In this document: in pieces, positions 4,316-22,600 of the stretch
Numbering within the stretch: the stretch's first letter is position 1
Layout of the letters: each line of letters opens with the position of its first letter
From: Candidatus Eiseniibacteriota bacterium
GTDB lineage: Bacteria; Arandabacterota; Arandabacteria; Arandabacterales; Arandabacteraceae
NCBI GenBank assembly: GCA_043810925.1
Contig: JBDRNT010000165.1
Coordinates: 1-22,735, forward strand
Length of the DNA: 22,735 nucleotides
Direction: 5' to 3'
The notes under the pieces: model-generated
What the model saw: only the letters and a program-made list of their open reading frames with translations
The model's database searches: none
Told to the model about the DNA's origin: nothing
Program-made: the position numbers and the translations under genes

Positions 4316-5542
4316 CTACTCTACTATCACGCCTCCGGTTCCGGTTACGCAATAATCCACGCCCGCAACCGGGGGGTCGTTCGTCCAGGTGTTGAACTTA
4401 GCGAAAATGGGATGATCGAGCTCGATCGAGAGCCCGCACTGCGTATTGTCCCTGATGATGTTGCCGCCCGCCGAGCCGCGCGCGCCCCCGCCAAAGTCGG
4501 GATTCAAACTGTTGGGAGCTGCCTCGTGCCTCACCAGGACTCCCTCTTCATTGCCCTCGATAAGACAGTTCTCCACGAGAACATCGCAGGTTTCGATAAT
4601 CTGAAGCCCGATGTTAAAGCCGGTAAATGTGCAGTTCCGGATAGCGGCACCGTCACTGCCGTCAAGAAGGGTTATCCCGTTGTCCAGTGTCTGACCGTCG
4701 TCAATGACGAAGTAACAGTTCTCGATTACGAGGTCTGTTCCTCCCGCGTTCTCACCGCGGACGATCTCGTACCTGGCACGTTCAATTACCCTGAGACTAT
4801 CCAGACGCACGCCCGGTCCCCAGACATATACGGTTATCTGGGTCTCGTCGGCGGGCAGGCCCTGCTCAAGGGTGAACTTACGGATAGCGCTACCCTGCGC
4901 AGCGGCATTGACGACCGATTGATATCCAAGACCGTGTCCACGGATTATGCATTGCTCCCAGTCCATCCCGGTGATGGTGACACCCTCGGTTCTGCATTCA
5001 ATAGGGAAGTCTTCACCGTTGGCCTCGTCGTACACTCCGGGTTGGGCGACAATGGTCCCGCCCGAGTCGACTACCGAAATTGCATGTGTCAGCGTCTTAA
5101 ACGGGAGACTGATACAGCCGTTATTGGCGTCAGTCCCATTGACGGCATCGACGAAGAGCTTATCGAAGGTCACCGTGACCATGCATGAATCGTAGATGGT
5201 TGTGTCTTCAACCGAAACGGCTTTGACCATAACTGTAGCAGGGTCCGGGAGCCAGTTGGGCGCGGTGTATGTCACCGGGCTATTCTCGGAGATCTCACCC
5301 ACAACCTCATTGCCGTCTGTGATGCCATTCACATACCAGGTCAGGTTCTTGTTATCACCGTTTACGGTGGGAGTGATCTCCCTGGAGTGCCCGACCTCGA
5401 TTTCCATCTGATCCGGATTGAGTGACACACCGGTCACCGGCTTGGGGTTCGTGCCGGTGCCCCCGCTGTCGCTCCCGCAACCTGAAAGGACTATCGCGCC
5501 CGCGAGCGCGGCCATCGCCGTTACCACGACCATTGCTCTCAT
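4316..5542 (-). CDS. Lipoprotein with an Ig-like domain and a right-handed beta-helix (DUF1565/pectin-lyase-like) domain, paralog 2
   Basis: Start moved to the ATG at 5542, which follows GAGAGGAG. Lipobox VLSG-C; VTGVSLNP..WYVNG Ig segment; PFKTLTHA...AQPGVYD...FPI; repeated IENC/IRNC beta-helix turns; PDFGGG..GS.GGN. Confidence 0.82.
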   Translation of the reverse strand: MRAMVVVTAMAALAGAIVLSGCGSDSGGTGTNPKPVTGVSLNPDQMEIEVGHSREITPTVNGDNKNLTWYVNGITDGNEVVGEISENSPVTYTAPNWLPDPATVMVKAVSVEDTTIYDSCMVTVTFDKLFVDAVNGTDANNGCISLPFKTLTHAISVVDSGGTIVAQPGVYDEANGEDFPIECRTEGVTITGMDWEQCIIRGHGLGYQSVVNAAAQGSAIRKFTLEQGLPADETQITVYVWGPGVRLDSLRVIERARYEIVRGENAGGTDLVIENCYFVIDDGQTLDNGITLLDGSDGAAIRNCTFTGFNIGLQIIETCDVLVENCLIEGNEEGVLVRHEAAPNSLNPDFGGGARGSAGGNIIRDNTQCGLSIELDHPIFAKFNTWTNDPPVAGVDYCVTGTGGVIVE

Positions 5543-5581
5543 GACTGACTCCTCTCTCACCGTGTTCATCTATGGGCCGGT

Positions 5582-6823
5582 CTATTCCACTATCACTCCG
5601 CCCGTGCTTGTGTTGGTGTAGTCTTCGCCGGCGACAGGCGGGTCGTTGGCCCAGGTGTTGAATTTGGCGAAAATCACGTTGTAGGTTTCATTCTGTAAGC
5701 CGCACTCCACGTTGTACCTTATCGTGTTGCCGCCTGTGCTGCCGCGTGCACCGCCGCCCAGGTCGGGCATGGGGTTGCTGCTCGAGCTCCCGTAACAACA
5801 CAGGTTAACTCCGTAATCGTTCCCCTCTATGGTGCAATTCTCGATAAGCGCGCTGGCATCCTGACTGATGAGGAAACCCTCCCGAAATCCGGAGACCGTG
5901 CAGCCCCTGATTATCGTTCCCACGTTGCCATCGATTATCTCAAATCCCCTGTTTTGCCCGATGCCGGATTGGGGCGGCGCAAGGTATGGTACCTCGAAAA
6001 CACAGTTCTCGACGATGGCATTGGTCGCGCGTCTTATCCGGATGGGTGCGTAGTATGAGCGATGGGACGTCCGTATGCTGTCCGCGCGGACATTGTCACC
6101 ACGCACGTAGATATAATGCTCCCACCTCTCCTCACCGAGATCGACATCTGATTCGAAAGTGAATTTCCTGATCGCGGATGCCGGGGTGTCCAGGCCTACG
6201 GCATAATCCCACTTCGTGCTTCCACGGATTACGCAGTTCACCCAGTCCTTGCCCACCACCGCCACACCGGCCTTGGGGTAGATCGGGAAGGTCTCGTCAT
6301 TGCCCGTGTCGTAGACGCCCGGCGCAACCAGTACGGTCCCACCCGAGCTCGCAAGCTCGTTGCCCCGGTGTATGGTCTTCACCGGGTCGTGGACATACCC
6401 GGTTCCCGTTGTGTCGTTCCCGGTTTGGATATCCACATGAATTATCTTGAAAGTGACTGTGACCAGGCACGAGTCGTACTTGGTTGTGTCCGCAACCGAC
6501 ACGGCCTTGACCTCGACCGGCAGGGGGCCGGGCCAGGTGTCCGGAGCCGCATACGTGACGGGGCTGTTCTGGCTGATGGTTCCGAATACGTCATTGCCGT
6601 CTTCGATGCCGTTGACGTACCACGCGAGGGTCTTGTTATCCCCGCCGGTCACGGTAGGAGTGATCTCCGCCGTGTACCCGGCCTCAACATCCATCGCGTG
6701 GGTGTCCAGCGATACCGACTGCACCGGATTCGGGCCCGAACCCGAGCCGCCGCTGTCACTCGAGCAGCCCTGGCAAAGAGCCAGGACAGCACATACGCAG
6801 GGAATTAGTAGAACCTTGTACAT
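5582..6823 (-). CDS. Lipoprotein with an Ig-like domain and a right-handed beta-helix (DUF1565/pectin-lyase-like) domain, paralog 1
   Basis: RBS AGGAGG before the ATG; lipobox LCQG-C. Same architecture as the neighbouring gene, with shared ISQNSPVTYAAP, YDSCLVTVTF, IFAKFNTW.NDPPVAG and GGVIVE. Confidence 0.85.
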   Translation of the reverse strand: MYKVLLIPCVCAVLALCQGCSSDSGGSGSGPNPVQSVSLDTHAMDVEAGYTAEITPTVTGGDNKTLAWYVNGIEDGNDVFGTISQNSPVTYAAPDTWPGPLPVEVKAVSVADTTKYDSCLVTVTFKIIHVDIQTGNDTTGTGYVHDPVKTIHRGNELASSGGTVLVAPGVYDTGNDETFPIYPKAGVAVVGKDWVNCVIRGSTKWDYAVGLDTPASAIRKFTFESDVDLGEERWEHYIYVRGDNVRADSIRTSHRSYYAPIRIRRATNAIVENCVFEVPYLAPPQSGIGQNRGFEIIDGNVGTIIRGCTVSGFREGFLISQDASALIENCTIEGNDYGVNLCCYGSSSSNPMPDLGGGARGSTGGNTIRYNVECGLQNETYNVIFAKFNTWANDPPVAGEDYTNTSTGGVIVE

Positions 6824-10287: not shown

Positions 10288-11361
10288 ATGGAGATGATCC
10301 ACAGCAGACTGAAGATCCTGCCCCTGCTTCTCGCGGTATTCGTGCTCTGCACGGCTGCCGCAGCGTATGCAGGAGAGCAGGCCTATCTGGGTGTGATGCT
10401 TCAACCGCTTACGGTGGACCTCAAAGAGGCTATGGACGTCAAGCGTGATTTGCGGGGAGTGCTCATAAGCGAAGTGATCGATGAGAGCCCCGCCGCTGCG
10501 TATGGTCTCAGGGACGGTGACATCATAATCGATATCGGCGGAGAAGAGATTGATACAGTGAAGGGTGCCGTGGCGGCGATCAATGCCTACGCCCCGGGCG
10601 AAGAAGTCAAAATCGTGGTCCTCCGGGACGGGGATATGAAAGAGGTTGTCGCAGTCACGCTGGGCGAGCGAGGGGACGAAGAAAAGATGGTCGAGAAGTT
10701 CCATCTCGAATCGCTCCCGGACATAACTCGTCACTTCGAGGGCTTCCAGAAAGGTTTCCAGAGAGGGCCGCAGGGCTTTCTCGGTGTGAGGATTGAAAAC
10801 ATCTCCACATCCGACCTCGGTGCCTACTTCGGTGTGGACCGGCGTGAGGGCGTGCTTGTGATCGAGGTGGTCGAAGACAGCCCGGCGGAGGAAGCAGGCA
10901 TCCTCGCCGGTGACGTGATCCTCAAGGTTGAAGGGAAAGATGTCACGAGCACCGACAATCTGGTCAAGTACATCAGGAAGTACGATCCCGGTGATGAGGT
11001 GGACCTGACCGTCAAGAGGAAGCGCCGCACCAGGACTGTCGAAGTCGAGCTGGGAAAGACCGCCGCTCAGGCAAAGGTCATGATGAAAGGTGATAGGGCT
11101 CCCGGCAAGTGCCGCATAGAGAAAATCAAACTGCCGGACATCGAGAAGATCGGAAAGAAGATCAAGGTCCACCATGATAAGAATGACGGCAAAGTCAGAA
11201 TTTACACTTACGGCGACGACGACATGGAGGACATGGAGATTTTCGATTTTGAATCCGATGAGTTTGAAAACGACATGGAGAAGATCGAAAAGGAAATGGA
11301 AGAACTCAAGCAGGAATTGAAAGAACTCAAGAAGGAGCTTGGAAAAGTCAGCGGACGGTAG
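10288..11361 (+). CDS. Exported tandem-PDZ protein (HtrA-like PDZ1-PDZ2, no protease domain) with an acidic and coiled-coil tail
   Basis: Start moved to the ATG at 10288, which follows AAAGGAG. Signal peptide ends AYA. Two PDZ repeats: AYLGV..GVLISEVIDESPA...GLRDGDII and GFLGV..GVLVIEVVEDSPAEEAGILAGDVI. Heptad tail MEKIEKEMEELKQELKELKKEL. Confidence 0.88.
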   Translation: MEMIHSRLKILPLLLAVFVLCTAAAAYAGEQAYLGVMLQPLTVDLKEAMDVKRDLRGVLISEVIDESPAAAYGLRDGDIIIDIGGEEIDTVKGAVAAINAYAPGEEVKIVVLRDGDMKEVVAVTLGERGDEEKMVEKFHLESLPDITRHFEGFQKGFQRGPQGFLGVRIENISTSDLGAYFGVDRREGVLVIEVVEDSPAEEAGILAGDVILKVEGKDVTSTDNLVKYIRKYDPGDEVDLTVKRKRRTRTVEVELGKTAAQAKVMMKGDRAPGKCRIEKIKLPDIEKIGKKIKVHHDKNDGKVRIYTYGDDDMEDMEIFDFESDEFENDMEKIEKEMEELKQELKELKKELGKVSGR

Positions 11362-11863
11362 CTCTCCTACCGGATTTAAGTGTGTGGGTGGCGGTTAAGA
11401 GCCCTGCCTTGTAGGCGAAACCCTTGAAGGTGGGGCTCTTGTCATTGTGACACGTTGTGCAGGTGGTCGAGTCGACGGCGACGAGCCCAAGCTCCCGGCT
11501 GATGTCGGGCTGTCTCATAACCGACGATCTTGAGTAAAGCGATCCGGCCCCGTGACATGCCTCACACTGGACGCCGGCGAGATCGATGATATTGACCTTT
11601 GCGCCGTAGCCCCCGTCACCAAAACCGGTTGTGTGGCATCTGAGACAGGTGGAGTCCTGCGCATCTTCCGCCTTGAGCGTGGAAAGAGATCTGGCATGGA
11701 TGGTGGTTTTCCAGGAGTTGTAGGTATCAAGGTGGCAGACCTTGCACCTACCGGCCCCGACATAGGATGGCTTCGGATGCTCTACTTCTTTTTCTTTGCT
11801 GGGCCAGGCAACCAGCATGATGCTGACCACCACGAACGCCGTTATGATGGATGCCCGTTTCAT
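11348..11863 (-). CDS. Tetraheme c-type cytochrome (cytochrome c554-like)
   Basis: N-terminal signal/anchor and four CxxCH motifs (CKVCH, CLRCH, CEACH, CTTCH) in the context YVG...C..CH...Y.SW..T.HA and GVQCEACHG.GS. Its 3' end overlaps the PDZ gene by 14 bp. Confidence 0.92.
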   Translation of the reverse strand: MKRASIITAFVVVSIMLVAWPSKEKEVEHPKPSYVGAGRCKVCHLDTYNSWKTTIHARSLSTLKAEDAQDSTCLRCHTTGFGDGGYGAKVNIIDLAGVQCEACHGAGSLYSRSSVMRQPDISRELGLVAVDSTTCTTCHNDKSPTFKGFAYKAGLLTATHTLKSGRRATVR

Positions 11864-11996
11864 TTAGACCTCACCGATGCCATATACATTAAGGCTTGCG
11901 GTGATTTCCATTGTCAAGACATAATTGGGACAGGAGGTAGTCGGTGACCCAATTAGGTCGGGTTTCCCCACTTGCCTGCCGATAGAGATACTAACT

Positions 11997-12821
11997 ATGA
12001 AACTTAAGGTCGTCATCACGCTGATGCTTTTTCTCACCTGTTGTCTTATCGATGTCCGGGCAGGCGATCTTCCGGGTCGGGAGATCTGGCTGCCTGAATC
12101 CGAGGTCAAGGACAGGTTCTACAGCTATCTGATCGGGCTGATTCAAGCCGATACCTGCGGAGTGCTCCTTGCCAGTGATCTGGAGCGAGTACTTGACGAC
12201 TACCGTGGTAAGACCTCAATACCTTTTGAAACGATCAAGGACATCCGACGGGAATGTGACCGTGGAGGGGACGGCAGGGAGATTTCTATCACCTTCAGGA
12301 AAGAGCTGACGACACCCGTGCCCTACAGCATACTCGGCTACCATCCCGGCTCGGTGACGGCCAGTTCCACTGTCCGGTTCATTGAATACGATATCCCGGT
12401 GAAAACACTGAGACTGAGCAAACGCAAGTCGATCGAGCTCAGCGACATCTATGTCTTTGCGATATGCGAGGGGTGGGCCGTCGTTGATATCCACTCCTGG
12501 CTGGATAAGCTGCTGGGTGGCATGCTCGATGACACGCGGCTCGTTGTGATGGCGCTCTTTAAATACAACGGGGATTGGCACGGGCTTGCTGCAGGTTATG
12601 ATCCGTCGGGTGAAGGCCGGTCCGGCATATTCAATTTAAGCCGGAACGAGATACTGTTTCCCACACCACGCGAACTACGGATGTTGGGGCCGTACTTCAG
12701 GAACTTCGTCACGCGTGTAAAGCGCGTACCGGTCCCCATGCCCCCTGAAGACAAGTGGATTACTGTAGGCTCGGCAGACTGTCGTGGCAACCTTGCCACG
12801 AAGGCCTACCCTCAGCCATAG
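11997..12821 (+). CDS. Hypothetical exported protein
   Basis: Long ORF divergent from the cytochrome gene. The likely start, ATG 11997, gives a signal peptide MKLKVVITLMLFLTCCLIDVRA. No recognised motif. Confidence 0.7.
   Translation: MKLKVVITLMLFLTCCLIDVRAGDLPGREIWLPESEVKDRFYSYLIGLIQADTCGVLLASDLERVLDDYRGKTSIPFETIKDIRRECDRGGDGREISITFRKELTTPVPYSILGYHPGSVTASSTVRFIEYDIPVKTLRLSKRKSIELSDIYVFAICEGWAVVDIHSWLDKLLGGMLDDTRLVVMALFKYNGDWHGLAAGYDPSGEGRSGIFNLSRNEILFPTPRELRMLGPYFRNFVTRVKRVPVPMPPEDKWITVGSADCRGNLATKAYPQP
12765..12811 (-). promoter_or_regulatory. Candidate bacterial SECIS element
   Basis: Minus strand after the TGA: GG GTAGGC CT TCGTGGCA-AGGT-TGCCACGA CAGTCTGCCGA GCCTAC. This gives an 8-bp upper stem, a G-containing 4-nt loop 18 nt after the UGA, and a possible lower stem GTAGGC/GCCTAC. 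Confidence 0.6.
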
Positions 12822-12997
12822 CGCCTAGTAGTATCACACGCGGCGCCGGTAGACTTGGAGCTCAAAAAAACCGAGAACTTCCTAATGATGTCCTTCGTTC
12901 CACAGTATGGACAAATAACGTTCCCATCCTTGACGTCGATCTCGAGGTTTTCGAACACTTTGCCACAGCGACTGCATCGGTATTCTCTTATAGGCAA
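12806..12997 (-). CDS. FmdB-family zinc-ribbon protein, candidate selenoprotein (ends at 12812 if TGA is a stop, 12806 if TGA is Sec)
   Basis: TTG start at 12997 with RBS GAGGAGG 8 nt upstream. MPIREYRCSRCGKVFE...CPYCG..DIIRKFSVF followed by a Ser-rich tail is the FmdB CxxC-CxxC pattern. 3' end reads TGT GAT ACT ACT AGG CGC TAT GGC TGA GGG TAG. Confidence 0.88.
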
Positions 12998-13054
12998 CTT
13001 CAAAACCTCCTCATGCGAGTCTTGTGACGCCGATATAGGCCAAAAGGTTTCATG

Positions 13055-13083: not shown

Positions 13084-13115
13084 ATGTTGAGATAAACCCT
13101 ATAGTGGAGGTAATG

Positions 13116-14354
13116 ATGGCACGACCTCTCGTCGTATTCGAGGATGCCGGACTCTCGAACCTTTTTCCCCTTACACTGACGAGACCCGTATTCGATCTCG
13201 TATGCGGTATGTCATCGCTGGCCGAGAAGGTGAAACACGGCCGTCCTTCGATCAAGTTCCACCTGAGAGACTATCTTGCAGCCGGTTGCGACGGTGCCGT
13301 CACGTCCTACAGGGAACTGTGTCAAGGACACGACATGCTCACCCTGATAAACGGGAGGGCGATCTTCAACAACGACCTGCTCGAACAGATTGAACCTTCC
13401 TGGCCGGGCAGGTATGTCTGCTGCGGGAGCACCGTTGTAGCGAACTTGTCCACGGGCCGTATAGAGGAGCTCGACCGCCTCATCGGACAGCCGCTCACTG
13501 AGGAGGTCTTTGCAGACCTGCCCGCGCGCAATCTCGATGTGGGTCTGATTTCGTTTCCCTGGGACCTGGTGGAGCTCAACGGTGAGGAGATAGGAAGGGA
13601 TTTTGCATCGTTGGGGGGGGGTGAGATCGAAACCGAACCTTCCCCGATGGTACATATGGTCGCAAAGGAGAACGTCAGGATCGGGAAGGATGTAAGAATA
13701 AGTCCCGGAGTCGTGATTGACGGCGGCAGCGGTCCGGTGAGTATAGCCGACGGCGTGGTGGTGATGGCGAATGCTTCGCTTCAAGGCCCTCTCCATGTCG
13801 GCCGGGGAAGCATCATAAAGATGGGTGCCAAGATATATGGCGGCACAACGATCGGACCGGTCTCAAAGATCGGTGGTGAGGTGGGCGAGACCATAATCCA
13901 GGGTTACATGAACAAGCAGCACGAGGGATTCCTCGGGCACTCATACATCGGCGAATGGGTTAATCTCGGTGCAGGCACGGATACAAGTGATATGAAGAAT
14001 AACTACTCCTCCGTGAGAGTTGCTGTTGCCGGAAGGCCTGTCGATTCGGGGGAGCTCTTTGTGGGTCTTTTCATGGGCGACCACTCCAAGACCGGAATCG
14101 GGACCGTGTTCAACACCGGCACCGTGGTCGGTGCTTGCTGCAATATCTTCGGGCCCGGCTATCCTCCCAAGTATGTGCCGTCATTCACCTGGGGAGGCGC
14201 CTCAGGCTTTGAGGAGCATGATCTTAAGAAGGCGATCGAGACGGCCGGGAGGGTGATGGGTAGAAGAGGTCACTCCCTGGACCCGGATGGCGAAGCGGTT
14301 CTTACGAAGGTTTTCGAACTCACGGCCGGCGAGCGGCATGCGTTTTTGGATTGA
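13116..14354 (+). CDS. GlmU-related sugar-phosphate nucleotidyltransferase/acyltransferase (NTP_transf_4-type N-terminus plus hexapeptide left-handed beta-helix)
   Basis: VVFED...NLFPLTLTRPVFDL.CG, PWDLV, hexapeptide repeats, KIGGEV, NKQHEGFLGHSYIGEWVNLGAGT.TSDMKNNY, GLFMGDHSKTGIGT.FNTGTVVG and PPKYVPSF.WG. RBS GGAGG at 13106-13110. Confidence 0.9.
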   Translation: MARPLVVFEDAGLSNLFPLTLTRPVFDLVCGMSSLAEKVKHGRPSIKFHLRDYLAAGCDGAVTSYRELCQGHDMLTLINGRAIFNNDLLEQIEPSWPGRYVCCGSTVVANLSTGRIEELDRLIGQPLTEEVFADLPARNLDVGLISFPWDLVELNGEEIGRDFASLGGGEIETEPSPMVHMVAKENVRIGKDVRISPGVVIDGGSGPVSIADGVVVMANASLQGPLHVGRGSIIKMGAKIYGGTTIGPVSKIGGEVGETIIQGYMNKQHEGFLGHSYIGEWVNLGAGTDTSDMKNNYSSVRVAVAGRPVDSGELFVGLFMGDHSKTGIGTVFNTGTVVGACCNIFGPGYPPKYVPSFTWGGASGFEEHDLKKAIETAGRVMGRRGHSLDPDGEAVLTKVFELTAGERHAFLD

Positions 14355-18235: not shown

Positions 18236-20614
18236 ATGATGAGACTGTCATTTGCTGTTGGAATTGTTTTGCTATTGGTGCTTGTGGTATCCGCTTATGC
18301 CGACTTCAGCCAGACCGGTGCGATACCATCACCGTGGCCGCCCGCAATCGGTGGTGCCAGAGTCAGTGGACTTTCAAGTGCGGGGGACGACCTCTTTGCT
18401 GTGGTCGCAACTCAATGGAAATCCTATCTCTATCACCTTGCACCCGACAGTGGAGATATGCTGCGGCAGGCGAAGTTCAACCACTGGCTACCCGGCTGTC
18501 CTGGCCAGCGTCCGCAGTTTACTTCGGGCACACCCTTGGATCTTGATCAGGATCTTTACCTGGTGGGAGATGCCTGCGGCGAGTTGCTCGAAATAGTCTT
18601 CGGTGTCGAGTGCAGCTACATCTCCGCCTACTATCACCTCGATGGTGTCGAGCTGCCGAGCGGTCTCGTCTTTGACGGTGATACGCTTTACGTGCTAGAC
18701 TGGGATGATAACACCCTTGTCAAGGTTGTCGGCACGGCCGTGATTGATGAGTACAGTCTCCCGGGTATCGATGGGCCGACGGGACTGGCTCTCTACCGCG
18801 GAAATCTCTTCGTGGTCAGCTCCGGCAATGACAGCACGGTTTTCGAGATCACGAAACAAGGGGCACTTGTGGAAGCCCATTCCGTTCAGGGCCTCGCCGG
18901 TGTGCATCCTTACAGTCTGACCTTTCACAACGACCTGCTTTACATAGGTTCTGAATACGACAGCATACTCATCTTCGAGGAAGAAGGGATCTGGGTTCCG
19001 GGAGGAGATGACGTTCCTGTGGAAGTTGTACCGGGTGAGCTGACCGTAAACTTTGACGGTGTGGCCCAACCGGGCTGGTTGTATGTGGACGTCTACTACA
19101 CCCAGACTTGCCCGGCGCCCGCTCAGGTCCAGCTCTTTCCTCCGTTCTACGATCTCACGACCACGGTGCAGTTCACCTATGTGGCCAGCACGGAACTCAC
19201 CTTCACAGATTCATTCCTGCCCCCGGAATTCGATGTTAGTACTTTGAGGATATTCAGGAGACCTTCGGGTCCATGCCTGGAATACGTGGATGTGACGGTG
19301 GAGGAAGTGGAGATCCTGGAGACTTTCAGAAGCCTGATGCGGACCCAGTCCGAAGACGATGAATTCTCTGTCTTTGCACTGGGAATCGACCTGAGACGAC
19401 CGCGAGCGGTCGTGGAGCTTAAGTTTACCGATGTGCGAAATGTCATAGTCTCCAATGTCGGTGTGATCCCGCCGGCTGTATTCGACGAGATAACGGCCAA
19501 ACTGGATGATGCTGAAACCGCATACTACAGGGGCTCCACCCTTGAGGCTGAGGCCCTTGTCCAGGAAATCGCAGACATCGTTCGGGATACTCCTGCCATC
19601 CCGCATACCTATGACGGCATGCCGGGAAGCAACGTCGCGGGCGGCATCATAGCGAGATCCCACACGCTTGCCTTCAGCCTGAGGTTCTCCGACGGGGAAC
19701 GTGTCGAGACCCTGGCTGAGATAAAGCCCTACAAGATAATTCTCGGTTTGGAAAGCCCCTGGTTAGCGGCTTACATAGAAGTGCCGGAGGGCTTCGATGC
19801 ATCCCAGGTTGACGCCTCCAACATTTATCTCGATGGCGAGGCTCGGGCGGTACCGGATTCCGTATTGGCCGTCGATTATGACTCCGATGGTGAGCTTGAG
19901 GTTAGAGCTCTTTTCGTCCGGCAGCAGGTTGAGAATCTCTTTGATGAATCCGGCCCGGTGACGGTGAGCCTCACAGGCTTCGTAGACGGGTTCGAGCTCG
20001 GTGCCGACCCGGAAGTCACCGTCTTTGCGCCGCTTGTGGAGATCATGGGAGAGGAGCCGCTTGAAGGTGGACGCGCTTACAGTGTTCGTTGGTCCGTGCT
20101 CTTCGAGGAACCGACCATCACCTACGCGGTTGATTATGCACTTGACGGCGGCCTGACCTGGGTGGAGATCGTCGAGGGCCTCACGAGTCCGTGCTATCTC
20201 TGGCAGGTACCGGATGTGGAGACCGACGCGGGAATGCTCAGGGTACACGTGCTGGACGCTGGAGTTGAATTCATGGCATTCCGGAGCGGCACGCTCACAA
20301 TTACATCCCTTGCCGGCCTCATAGACGGTGTGGGTGGGCACACAGACAGGCTGGCAATCAGCCCCAATCCGTCGAGTTCATCGTTCAGGATACATCTGGC
20401 ACCCGCAGGCGACCTGCCCATCTCCGTAAAGATATACTCGGTCACGGGGGAGCTGGTGAGAACGCTTGTCGAGAATGAGGTGGCCGATGGCAGTTACAGC
20501 CTTACCTGGGATGGCGCCAATGCCAACGGCATCCGGGTGGCGGCCGGGACGTATTTCATGGTGCTTACAGAAGGCGAGCATAAGACAGCAAGGAAACTGA
20601 TCCTGCAGAGGTAA
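18236..20614 (+). CDS. Secreted multidomain protein: beta-propeller, ZU5-like beta domain, helical domain, extra Ig-like domains, C-terminal FlgD-Ig/T9SS-A-like domain
   Basis: Signal peptide ending AYA. Propeller-like repeats PSGLVFDGDTLYVLD, PTGLALYRGNLFVV and PYSLTFHNDLLYIG. C-terminus ISPNPS...KIYSVTGELVRTL...WDG.NANG..VAAGTYF. Confidence 0.82.
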   Translation: MMRLSFAVGIVLLLVLVVSAYADFSQTGAIPSPWPPAIGGARVSGLSSAGDDLFAVVATQWKSYLYHLAPDSGDMLRQAKFNHWLPGCPGQRPQFTSGTPLDLDQDLYLVGDACGELLEIVFGVECSYISAYYHLDGVELPSGLVFDGDTLYVLDWDDNTLVKVVGTAVIDEYSLPGIDGPTGLALYRGNLFVVSSGNDSTVFEITKQGALVEAHSVQGLAGVHPYSLTFHNDLLYIGSEYDSILIFEEEGIWVPGGDDVPVEVVPGELTVNFDGVAQPGWLYVDVYYTQTCPAPAQVQLFPPFYDLTTTVQFTYVASTELTFTDSFLPPEFDVSTLRIFRRPSGPCLEYVDVTVEEVEILETFRSLMRTQSEDDEFSVFALGIDLRRPRAVVELKFTDVRNVIVSNVGVIPPAVFDEITAKLDDAETAYYRGSTLEAEALVQEIADIVRDTPAIPHTYDGMPGSNVAGGIIARSHTLAFSLRFSDGERVETLAEIKPYKIILGLESPWLAAYIEVPEGFDASQVDASNIYLDGEARAVPDSVLAVDYDSDGELEVRALFVRQQVENLFDESGPVTVSLTGFVDGFELGADPEVTVFAPLVEIMGEEPLEGGRAYSVRWSVLFEEPTITYAVDYALDGGLTWVEIVEGLTSPCYLWQVPDVETDAGMLRVHVLDAGVEFMAFRSGTLTITSLAGLIDGVGGHTDRLAISPNPSSSSFRIHLAPAGDLPISVKIYSVTGELVRTLVENEVADGSYSLTWDGANANGIRVAAGTYFMVLTEGEHKTARKLILQR

Positions 20615-20623
20615 CGATGTGAA

Positions 20624-20657
20624 TAGCGGCGTCGCGTCTCGTGGCGCGACGCCGCTA
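20624..20657 (+). terminator. Strong intergenic hairpin (terminator or mRNA-stabilising stem)
   Basis: 13-bp perfect stem TAGCGGCGTCGCG/CGCGACGCCGCTA, 9 nt after the stop at 20614. No clear U-tract. Confidence 0.6.
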
Positions 20658-20673
20658 CAACCCCCGAATTCTC

Positions 20674-20702
20674 TTGAAATTACGCACCCTCTATGGTAAA
20701 CT
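20674..20702 (+). promoter_or_regulatory. Sigma70-type promoter with extended -10
   Basis: TTGAAA (20674-20679), 17-bp spacer ending TGG, then TAAACT (20697-20702). Confidence 0.6.
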
Positions 20703-20764
20703 CGGCATGTTGTACAATTGTAACTGTGTGAGTTACTTTTCACCTTCTTAAAGGGGGACGTGCC

Positions 20765-22600
20765 GTGCGACTGTCTATTGCTGTAATCTTTGTCTTAGTT
20801 CTTGCAGTATTGACTTCCGCCTATGCCGAGGATCTATTCCTCGTGGGAAGCCTTCCTACTCCCAACCATACTGGACGGCTTACAGGGCTCGAGATGGCGG
20901 AGGGCAAGATCTTCGCCGTGGCCGATCTTCCGGGTGAGTTCTCCTGCCTGGCCATGATCAATCGTTGGACCGGTGCCTGGACCGACACATGTTTCTCAGA
21001 CTGGATCGGCGCCTGCGGTGATGACTCGCTGAATTTCAAGGCGAACGCTTACATCCCGTCCGAGTATGAAGGCCTTGGAGATCATGTGGTCGCGGATGAG
21101 TGCGGTGCGATAGTGCGATACCTATGGGATCCGTACTACGGCGTTGACACGCTGCAGTCCTTTGTACCGTCAACGCTGATTGAGGACCACGCAACGGGGC
21201 TTTACTACAGGGGCGACTACTACTATGCTCTTGAGCCCGATGCGCGTGAGGTCCATCAGATCAATCGTTACACGCTCGTGACCGACAGCATAATATCGCT
21301 ACCACCTCGTATTCAAGATGGATCCGGGATTACGAGGTATGGAGACAACTTCTTCATTGTATCGTCGACGACGGACAGCCTCTATGAGGTAAACATGGAT
21401 GGTGACGTGGTAGCGGCATACCACCTACCGGGCACCCTGGCATATCCTACCGGGGTCACCGTGATAGGGGATTCGGTTTACGTGTGTTCACAGGACACCA
21501 TCATCAAGATTTACGTGTTTTCGGAGGAGTACAGTGAAGACGTGCCCACCGGTACTGATGTAGAGGTGGAGGTGGTACCCGGCGAGGCGGTCGTCGTCTT
21601 TGATGAAGTGACCGGGTCGGGCACACTCGATGTTCAAGTCAGCCCAGCTCAGCCGTGCCCTCCGCCGGGGGGAGTCCGGTTCCTCTCGGACTTCTATGAC
21701 ATGAGCACGAATGCGACTTTTGAATACATAGCCTCGGTCGCGCTGACGACCGTGGAGCAACTGCCCGAGGGCGTCAAGGCGAGAGATGTACGCGTGTTTA
21801 AACGCCCGTCGGGTCTGCCCTGTGAGCCCTGGAGAGACGTCTCGGTCGCCCCAGCTGTGACCTTTGAGGAGCCTAAGGATGCTTCCCTGAGAGCGCTTAC
21901 ACGGATGCAGTCGGAAGACGATGAGTTTTCCGTGTTTGCGCTTGCTGAGGATAAGAGGAATCGGAGACACGTCATCGGTCTCAAGTTCACTTATCTTGAC
22001 AGCGCCGTCATAGGAAATCAGAGTTCCATCCCCGTTGAAGCCTATAACCAGATGACGATACGCATCACAGCTGCCAAGTATGCCACCGCCGCGTTCATGT
22101 TTGCCAGGGCGGCAAGGCTCATTGACCGGGTTGCAGTCATTGCCAGGGAGACCCCCGGGATACCGCATGCGTATGACCCTGATGGGATACTGGAGAACAT
22201 AGCCGGCCAGATAATCGGCCGCGCGCATACGCTCTCCTTCAGTCTGAGGGAGCTGCTCAAGGATGAGCAGGTAGGACCGGCGCCGTTCCAGGGGAAGGTT
22301 ACACCGGACGCGCCTGCCGAAGAGTTTGCTCCGGGACTCGGGTCGATCTCCAACCCGTCGATCTCAGGGTGCACAATAAGGCTAACGGGTCAGAGCAGCA
22401 AACCGGTGAATCTGAACGTCTACTCCGTAACGGGTGAGCTGGTAAGGACACTGCTTGAAGGGGAAATGCTGACCGGTAAGCGCAGCATCACATGGGACGG
22501 ACGAAACGGTCATGGCAAACCTGTCGCGGCCGGCACCTACTTCGTTGTGTTGAAGCATGGAGAGCAGCTCACGACGCAGAAGGTGATTCTGAATCGATAG
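20765..22600 (+). CDS. Secreted multidomain protein, paralog of 18236..20614 without the extra Ig-like domains
   Basis: GTG start after AAGGGGG; signal peptide ending AYA; propeller repeats. Shares VP.G.DV.VEVVPGE..V.FD.V, RPSG.PC, QSEDDEFSVFAL, P.IPH.YD, HTL.FSLR and YSVTGELVRTL...VAAGTYF with the upstream gene. Confidence 0.82.
   Translation: MRLSIAVIFVLVLAVLTSAYAEDLFLVGSLPTPNHTGRLTGLEMAEGKIFAVADLPGEFSCLAMINRWTGAWTDTCFSDWIGACGDDSLNFKANAYIPSEYEGLGDHVVADECGAIVRYLWDPYYGVDTLQSFVPSTLIEDHATGLYYRGDYYYALEPDAREVHQINRYTLVTDSIISLPPRIQDGSGITRYGDNFFIVSSTTDSLYEVNMDGDVVAAYHLPGTLAYPTGVTVIGDSVYVCSQDTIIKIYVFSEEYSEDVPTGTDVEVEVVPGEAVVVFDEVTGSGTLDVQVSPAQPCPPPGGVRFLSDFYDMSTNATFEYIASVALTTVEQLPEGVKARDVRVFKRPSGLPCEPWRDVSVAPAVTFEEPKDASLRALTRMQSEDDEFSVFALAEDKRNRRHVIGLKFTYLDSAVIGNQSSIPVEAYNQMTIRITAAKYATAAFMFARAARLIDRVAVIARETPGIPHAYDPDGILENIAGQIIGRAHTLSFSLRELLKDEQVGPAPFQGKVTPDAPAEEFAPGLGSISNPSISGCTIRLTGQSSKPVNLNVYSVTGELVRTLLEGEMLTGKRSITWDGRNGHGKPVAAGTYFVVLKHGEQLTTQKVILNR

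Follow-up and report, generated by a model that had tools for sequence, protein, structure and literature searches.

The window analysed here, a stretch of 22,735 nucleotides, carries on its minus strand a short gene whose reading frame runs into a TGA codon that is followed by a single glycine codon and then by TAG. The question that this locus raises is whether the TGA ends translation or is read as selenocysteine (Sec, U); the original prediction had proposed the latter, i.e., a hidden selenoprotein of the FmdB zinc-ribbon family. The features that bear on the question are listed below.

12806..12997, minus strand: FmdB (TIGR02605) zinc-ribbon gene, 63 amino acids with UGA as Sec or 61 if ended at UGA (from translation and HMMs)
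13006..13012, minus strand: ribosome-binding site GAGGAGG, 8 nt 5' of the TTG start (12997-12995)
12902..12976, minus strand: two CxxC knuckles (Cys8, Cys11, Cys29, and Cys32) of the putative metal-binding ribbon, unchanged in all 20 aligned Sec-type proteins
12836..12838, minus strand: Cys54, the single Cys of the tail and proposed partner of Sec, 8 residues upstream of U62
12812..12814, minus strand: in-frame TGA, proposed Sec62, conserved in all 20 Sec-type proteins of the alignment
12806..12811, minus strand: Gly63 codon GGG (12811-12809) and the stop codon TAG (12808-12806), taken as the true stop (from translation)
12773..12810, minus strand: SECIS-like hairpin with an upper stem (12801-12794 with 12789-12782), a loop AGGU (12793-12790), and a lower stem (12810-12804 with 12779-12773), from folding and covariation
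11925..12821, plus strand: convergent conserved gene of 298 amino acids, whose frame crosses the hairpin's reverse complement and shares 16 nt with the 3' end of the FmdB gene
13104..14354, plus strand: divergent GlmU-like gene (TIGR03991), from an HMM

When TGA is translated as U, the product has 63 residues, with Cys at positions 8, 11, 29, 32, and 54 and U at position 62, and the tail of the gene reads Cys54-x7-TGA-Gly-TAG. The TGA, the single Gly codon, and the TAG that had been described are therefore present on the minus strand, and so is the predicted 63-residue product with a penultimate Sec and a Cys 8 residues upstream of it. The 61 residues before the TGA score 40.5 bits against TIGR02605 (cut-off, 31.3 bits) and 42 bits against PF09723 (cut-off, 34.4 bits); by these scores and the two N-terminal CxxC motifs, the gene product is an FmdB zinc ribbon with putative zinc binding. 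The structure model contains three strands, with pLDDT values of 65 to 78 for residues 1 to 40 and of about 50 for the tail. Searches of the PDB by sequence and by fold returned generic zinc-finger, zinc-ribbon, and rubredoxin matches, and the fold matches, which also included HypA, were weak, none having an E value below 0.001.

The TTG start at 12997 has a ribosome-binding site and fits the start of the family model, and purine-rich sites likewise lie upstream of the start in 12 relatives. A longer frame of 147 amino acids from 13255 was rejected, as it overlaps the GlmU-like gene and is without support. The minus-strand frames at 12596-12799, 12216-12581, and 11864-12109 belong to no family and were taken as shadows of the plus-strand gene. 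Database relatives with 84 to 85% identity are 61 amino acids long, a length that fits the right start together with a cut at the TGA. Database proteins thus end before the UGA, in line with the expected truncation by standard gene callers, but the accompanying expectation that the wrong start would be chosen found no support.

Insertion of Sec depends on the host, in which the original prediction had looked for selA, selB, selC, and selD. All of these are present: the genome (91.7% complete) contains selA, selB, and two selD genes above the cut-off and a tRNA-Sec that scores 74.2 bits, and one of the selD genes, which has an in-frame TGA itself, lies beside the tRNA-Sec gene. The tRNA-Sec is the sole tRNA with a UCA anticodon among 41, and TGA, the commonest stop codon of the long frames of the genome, ends 1245 of 2641 of them; the genetic code is therefore taken to be the standard one. 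On contigs C99 and C119 of this genome (G000), two thioredoxin-like frames were observed that contain a TGA in frame and, with it, a strong hairpin of the G-loop type; these are probably further selenoproteins, and the frame on C119 is without the usual second Cys after its TGA. A genome-wide scan for UGA codons with hairpins gave 574 candidates and was too noisy to define the selenoproteome.

The hairpin behind the UGA has an 8-bp upper stem and the loop AGGU, with 18 nt between UGA and loop, exactly as had been described. The lower stem that had been proposed is also present, but ViennaRNA extends it from 6 to 7 bp, and it includes the UAG. The folding energy is -25.6 kcal/mol (z = -3.31), and 2 of 200 shuffled sequences were equally stable. 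The bacterial SECIS rules given in PMC13188914 ask for a loop of 3 to 9 nt, an upper stem of 4 to 16 bp, G in one of the first two loop positions, and a distance of 16 to 37 nt from the UGA, at -7.5 kcal/mol or lower; the hairpin agrees with all four published rules, having a loop of 4 nt, a stem of 8 bp, G in the second position, and a distance of 18 nt at the energy stated above. As a chance control, the hairpin-plus-G rule was applied to the long TGA-ending frames of the same genome, of which 84 of 1243 (6.8%) comply, and 20 of 1243 when a second stop within 7 codons is also required. In an alignment of 20 sequences, the 8-bp stem is paired in 81.5% of the cells, compared with 38 to 61% in slid registers, and double-sided changes occur in 7 of its 8 pairs, in a test that used the structure from the window sequence and thus favours that structure. 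RNAalifold, applied to 15 members of the class, predicted the same helix unaided.

Of 17 genomes from this class, 14 keep an orthologue that ends in TGA, one codon, and a stop. With this query none was found in two others (G009, 73% complete, and G012, 57% complete), and in the selA-positive genome G008 (98% complete), the sole orthologue appears broken after about 25 codons and abuts the convergent gene (L340 1150-1600), which indicates that the gene is dispensable there. A comparison of homologous loci had been suggested as a check on the prediction, and it came out in its favour, since close homologues keep the TGA and a covarying hairpin and none has TAA or TAG at this site.

For a wider survey, a profile was built from 20 read-through proteins, and matches to it occurred in 325 of 401 genomes. 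The sample consisted of the best 150 of 697 matches and the earlier loci, giving 158 parsed FmdB genes in 136 genomes, with 5 loci that could not be parsed left out; tail classes were set from the protein sequence alone, by the number of Cys residues after the ribbon. Tails with one Cys occur in 54 of these 158 genes, all in selA-positive genomes, and 53 of the 54 end in TGA, in every case with a second stop within 7 codons (53/53); none of the 38 sampled genes from selA-negative genomes has such a tail. Tails with two Cys from the selA-positive genomes of the sample end in TGA in 19 of 20 genes. The stop codons of the Cys-rich paralogues are 14 TAG, 11 TGA, and 11 TAA in selA-positive genomes and 16 TAA, 7 TGA, and 5 TAG in selA-negative ones.

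A Sec-type set, which was defined after the data had been seen (at most two tail Cys, TGA, and a second stop within 9 codons), comprises 75 genes from 75 genomes with 46 family labels. Such a gene is found in 74 of 100 selA-positive genomes and in 1 of 35 selA-negative genomes, one genome with a partial selA being set aside; the exception, G100 (97% complete), has a Sec-type look-alike and a tRNA-Sec, and selA and selB were not found in it. Within 3 codons of the UGA, 56 of 75 genes have an in-frame stop, compared with 0 and 2 of 75 when the other two frames are read; the in-frame figure is circular in part. Hairpins with G in the loop, at +16 to +25, accompany 59 of the 75 Sec-type genes and 4 of 81 other FmdB genes, the remaining 16 of the 75 failing the hairpin rule on the minimum-energy fold, and the loop G is present in 59 of 60 hairpins. 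Because the survey genes had been picked by their score to a Sec-type profile, the first sample was revisited: its 27 selA-negative genomes were searched again, and none of the 30 genes examined (of 40 matches) has this kind of tail. Of the 16 selA-positive genomes that the first sample contains from outside the phylum, at least 8 have it. The genomes are related, so that these counts overstate independence and no p-value is claimed.

Close relatives were scarce in pattern scans: those of genome contigs gave 7 loci, none with a one-Cys tail, and those of metagenome contigs gave 13 loci, one of which has a one-Cys tail and ends in TGA-Gly-stop with a G-loop hairpin. In a tree built by quick search from 45 columns of 150 ribbon domains, the tail labels cluster, with 27 changes versus 50 for shuffled labels. 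A different arrangement was observed in one FmdB gene of a selA-positive genome (L334, G023:C442:1589-1753, minus strand), where C-G-G-TGA-x4-C-x2-C precedes the next stop and the hairpin rule fails. Its TGA takes the place of the second Cys in the pattern of the Cys-rich tails and is possibly a third Sec site, represented by a single example.

The Sec machinery, the conservation of the site, the covariation of the hairpin, and the phylogenetic profile all support the idea of a hidden FmdB selenoprotein. On this evidence, which is drawn from sequence comparison, the UGA is very probably read as Sec, which would be the penultimate residue of the FmdB protein, and we consider it highly likely that the whole reading holds, i.e., that the gene encodes a 63-residue selenoprotein with a Cys- and Sec-bearing tail on a metal ribbon. 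SelB bound to the G-containing loop of the hairpin would bring Sec-tRNA to the UGA; one Gly would be added after Sec62 before translation stops at the UAG, which would leave the hairpin mostly in the 3' untranslated region. The protein would thus comprise a four-Cys metal ribbon and an unstructured, Ser/Gly-rich tether that ends C-x7-U-G-COOH. When selenium is scarce, a 61-residue form with a lone Cys would be expected.

As to the function of the tail, a flexible redox arm made of Cys54 and Sec62 is suggested by analogy, and we would give this role about an even chance. A reversible selenenylsulfide could link Cys54 to Sec62 on an arm that swings; with the ribbon docked on a partner, the arm would pass two electrons to a disulfide, a persulfide, or an oxidised site, and a thioredoxin-type reductant would reset it. 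In 71 of 75 Sec-type genes, the tail has a Cys before the UGA, at a spacing of 3 to 18 residues, mostly 4 to 8. The other 4 of the 75, including that of G004 from the same family, have no tail Cys before the UGA, so that the Cys-Sec pair is not universal, and five genes have a Cys after the UGA; both observations fit a pair of variable order rather than a rigid site. C-x4-U tails occur in 15 of the 75 genes, and C-x2-U occurs once.

Whether Cys can take the place of Sec in this tail was considered from the homologues. In the database, 255 short homologues include 194 with a one-Cys tail and none with U, and Cys in the exact frame F/Y-G/S/T-C-x-stop occurs in 0 of the 255; the absence of an exact Cys form is a true shortfall by the standard usually applied to selenoproteins and probably explains why the family was missed. 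A C-x4-C tail is present at 5 genome loci and in a few database proteins. In the tree, G058 (Cys) pairs with G215 (Sec) with 99% support; the two loci are syntenic and 81% identical over 2.7 kb, and G058 keeps selA. G058 ends in C-x4-C-x3-stop, whereas G215 and three more members of its family end in C-x6-U-x2-3-stop. This comparison (L292/L106 versus L289-L291 and L293) is suggestive of a replacement of the Sec tail by a Cys tail, in one event and with a two-residue gap. Changes from Sec to Cys are called rare in bacteria in PMC13188914. The tail may be pictured as an exchangeable module of the family, which takes the form C-x4-C, C-x4-8-U, or Cys-rich. It is a tentative proposal, and one that we hold with less than even confidence, that this protein ranks with the most widespread selenoproteins of Sec-using bacteria still missing from the catalogues, that it works on its own as a redox arm swinging from a metal ribbon, and that the exchangeable tails mark the low-complexity ends of the large FmdB family as its active site.

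The convergent plus-strand gene, which the original prediction did not mention, has orthologues (12 to 13 aligned) at 48 to 86% identity and is syntenic in 12 relatives; it matched no Pfam family, its Atlas matches were all below 0.9, and its N-terminal stretch is hydrophobic. Of 12 relatives from its order, 11 have a divergent ORF upstream that is similar in size to the GlmU-like gene, and the FmdB gene is apparently unaccompanied by others on its strand. Its neighbours differ between lineages, and a scan of 59 and 71 flanking proteins pointed to no partner gene that is conserved. Genes of the thioredoxin family lie next to 7 of the loci. By motif, a thioredoxin is near 8 of 75 Sec-type and 3 of 51 Cys-type loci, with no clear enrichment, so that this is no more than a lead; the Cys-type flanks were checked by motif and not by Pfam. 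At three loci (L026, L202, and L203), a Cys-rich FmdB paralogue is followed directly by another gene, the start of which resembles that of an HU/IHF-type protein. Elsewhere in the window, the minus strand encodes a 171-residue multiheme protein at 11348-11863 that is similar to cytochrome c554 and resembles, far below the cut-off, the C-terminal part of the UshA-like (seleno)protein NF041198; an ORF of the same c554-like type lies at the same place in G007. Two tandem pairs of paralogues were also seen, one of DUF1565 beta-helix proteins (4316-6823, minus strand) and one of DUF6689 proteins with C-terminal FlgD-like domains (18236-22600, plus strand).

Sec may be inserted and yet serve another purpose, i.e., the tail could be a ligand for a soft metal or an Fe-S cluster (Cu, Hg, Zn, Ni, or cluster hand-over) in a small metallochaperone or metal sensor. 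The tails of the paralogues are Cys-rich and mostly of the CxxC type (38 of 68 non-Sec-type genes with at least two tail Cys), the weak fold matches (none with E below 0.001) include HypA and rubredoxins, and genes for ArsR, outer-membrane and cation efflux, NifU_N, and Nitro_FeMo-Co proteins are among the scattered neighbours. These neighbours are, however, few and derive in part from one family; the tail offers one Cys and one Sec only, at a spacing of 3 to 18 residues on an unstructured tether, and the sole orthologous swap yields C-x4-C near the C terminus. We regard a metal-ligand role as less likely than the redox arm.

The UGA and its SECIS might instead act as a gauge or sink for selenium, with the supply of Sec-tRNA reported by the ratio of the 61- and 63-residue products or by ribosome pausing and with the ribbon as a regulator. 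The family is annotated as 'putative regulatory protein', the form is common in Sec-using genomes, and both products should fold because Sec is the penultimate residue. On the other hand, this lineage has no same-strand gene downstream that could be attenuated, the upstream neighbour being the divergent GlmU-like gene. The neighbours are not sel genes, a partner Cys is present in 71 of 75 genes, and Cys can stand in for Sec in a selA-positive genome, so that a gauge seems improbable.

Since the FmdB gene is convergent with the plus-strand gene, the main rival to Sec insertion itself is a terminator: TGA would be an ordinary stop, and the hairpin would be a terminator or an RNA-stability element between convergent genes, in this genus maybe constrained by the plus-strand gene. 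The neighbour is indeed convergent and conserved in this lineage, TGA is the commonest stop of long frames here (1245/2641), and a U-rich tail is seen in 7 of the 70 hairpins of the family; the other 63 are without a U tract, and no Rho-independent terminator (GC-rich stem and U tract) was called between 11800 and 13400 on either strand. The plus-strand frame reaches the hairpin only in this genus, where it has grown by about 16 codons, and as it passes through the hairpin, the latter cannot end the plus-strand message; in 11 relatives the frame ends short of the hairpin, yet the position of the hairpin and its loop G are kept. A terminator would also leave unexplained the TGA in 53 of 54 one-Cys genes, the in-frame second stop (56/75 versus 0 and 2), the loop G in 59 of 60 hairpins, and the restriction to Sec-using genomes. 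It was rejected as very improbable on the U-tract counts, the lack of a terminator call, and the geometry of the plus-strand frame. That the UGA encodes Trp or Gly in a changed code or is leaky and read through without Sec has a negligible chance of being right: leaky stops also select for a close second stop, but the pattern tracks selA across 46 families, and the changed code was rejected on the stop usage and the tRNA set described above.

With Sec insertion at the UGA as the preferred reading, the place of this protein among known selenoproteins can be considered. FmdB-family selenoproteins were predicted by Zhang and Gladyshev (2008; PMC2398784) from two Global Ocean Sampling (GOS) reads, without accession numbers, and the supplement of that paper gives both sequences with U in the first knuckle (UxxU or CxxU, residues 8 to 11). 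The family is given as U/CxxU in a 2022 review (PMC9312934) and as UxxU, without an accession number, in Table 1 of a 2026 inventory of 119 families (PMC13188914), a table that contains no C-terminal form. The statement in the original prediction that FmdB is among the reported selenoprotein families was thus correct in that FmdB Sec forms are published, but those sequences have Sec in the first knuckle, not at the C terminus. The window protein shares with the GOS proteins the TIGR02605 domain and a UGA with a bacterial SECIS; it differs in that Cys8 and Cys11 are encoded by Cys codons and all four ribbon Cys are intact, in that U is penultimate and lies 8 residues after a lone tail Cys, and in that the GOS sequences of the supplement have another type of tail. 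A different position of Sec is treated in PMC13188914 as a separate subfamily, and the C-terminal site would, by this usage, be a different subfamily from the published one. The protein very probably represents a new subfamily, with a new Sec site, of a family with known Sec forms; it is widespread in Sec-using bacteria, and its function is inferred.

The main texts of BSepDB, deep-Sep, SelCysML, and the Haft and Gwadz preprint do not contain the term 'FmdB', and NCBIfam 20.0 has no dedicated model for the C-terminal Sec form. Full-text searches of openly readable papers gave no description of it; the 'FmdB' in PMC11227280 is subunit B of formylmethanofuran dehydrogenase, a clash of names. Within TIGR02605 and PF09723, the database entries of this subtype end just before the UGA. 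For example, WP_013638995.1 has 63 amino acids and ends in Phe-Gly, and the same 63 residues at locus L051 are followed by TGA-Gly-Ile-TAG and a hairpin. No entry with U and no selenoprotein name occurs among the 120 matches listed for the database relatives. The reactive residue is therefore probably absent from many database entries that are named 'zinc ribbon domain-containing protein' and have Phe-Gly, Phe-Ser, or Phe-Thr at the end. Cys/TGA searches may have overlooked the protein, as its tail cannot be aligned and hardly any sequence lies beyond the UGA; present searches depend on a Cys homologue or on sequence downstream of the UGA, a limit that is stated for deep-Sep.

UGA codons with a close second stop, which are easily taken for a stop, are also known from bacterial selenoproteins whose Sec lies at the C terminus or close to it, namely SaoC, the KCU-star and UXX-star families, and the selenobacteriocin TIGR04081 (PMC13188914, Table 1; bioRxiv 10.1101/2022.07.06.499078). 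These proteins are not homologous to the one described here, the motif of which is C-x4-8-U-G and not CU, and none of their models ranks in the top 25 of the 27 matches that the read-through protein has in NCBIfam at E values up to 1. With the present case, the bacterial inventory gains a common selenoprotein subfamily, and a blind spot of present searches is exposed. As Sec usually marks a catalytic or ligand site, the tail is a target for experiments on the uncharacterised FmdB family, and with a protein of 63 residues that is present in cultured species, the claim is cheap to test; the Sec-using Desulfurobacterium thermolithotrophum, which is non-pathogenic, is one such species with the one-Cys tail.

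Similar Gly-rich tails with a penultimate Sec are found in eukaryotic SELENOS and SELENOK. Redox arms at the C terminus are described for the alpha subunit of class Ia ribonucleotide reductase, whose CX4C tail exchanges disulfides with a redoxin (PMC11067019), and for mammalian thioredoxin reductase, which ends in Cys-Sec-Gly with Sec as the penultimate residue (PMC10779653). The relation of these arms to the FmdB tail is one of analogy only, as there is no homology and the FmdB protein has no catalytic domain in cis; what they share is a flexible C-terminal tail that carries a Cys-Cys or Cys-Sec pair 1 to 3 residues from its end.
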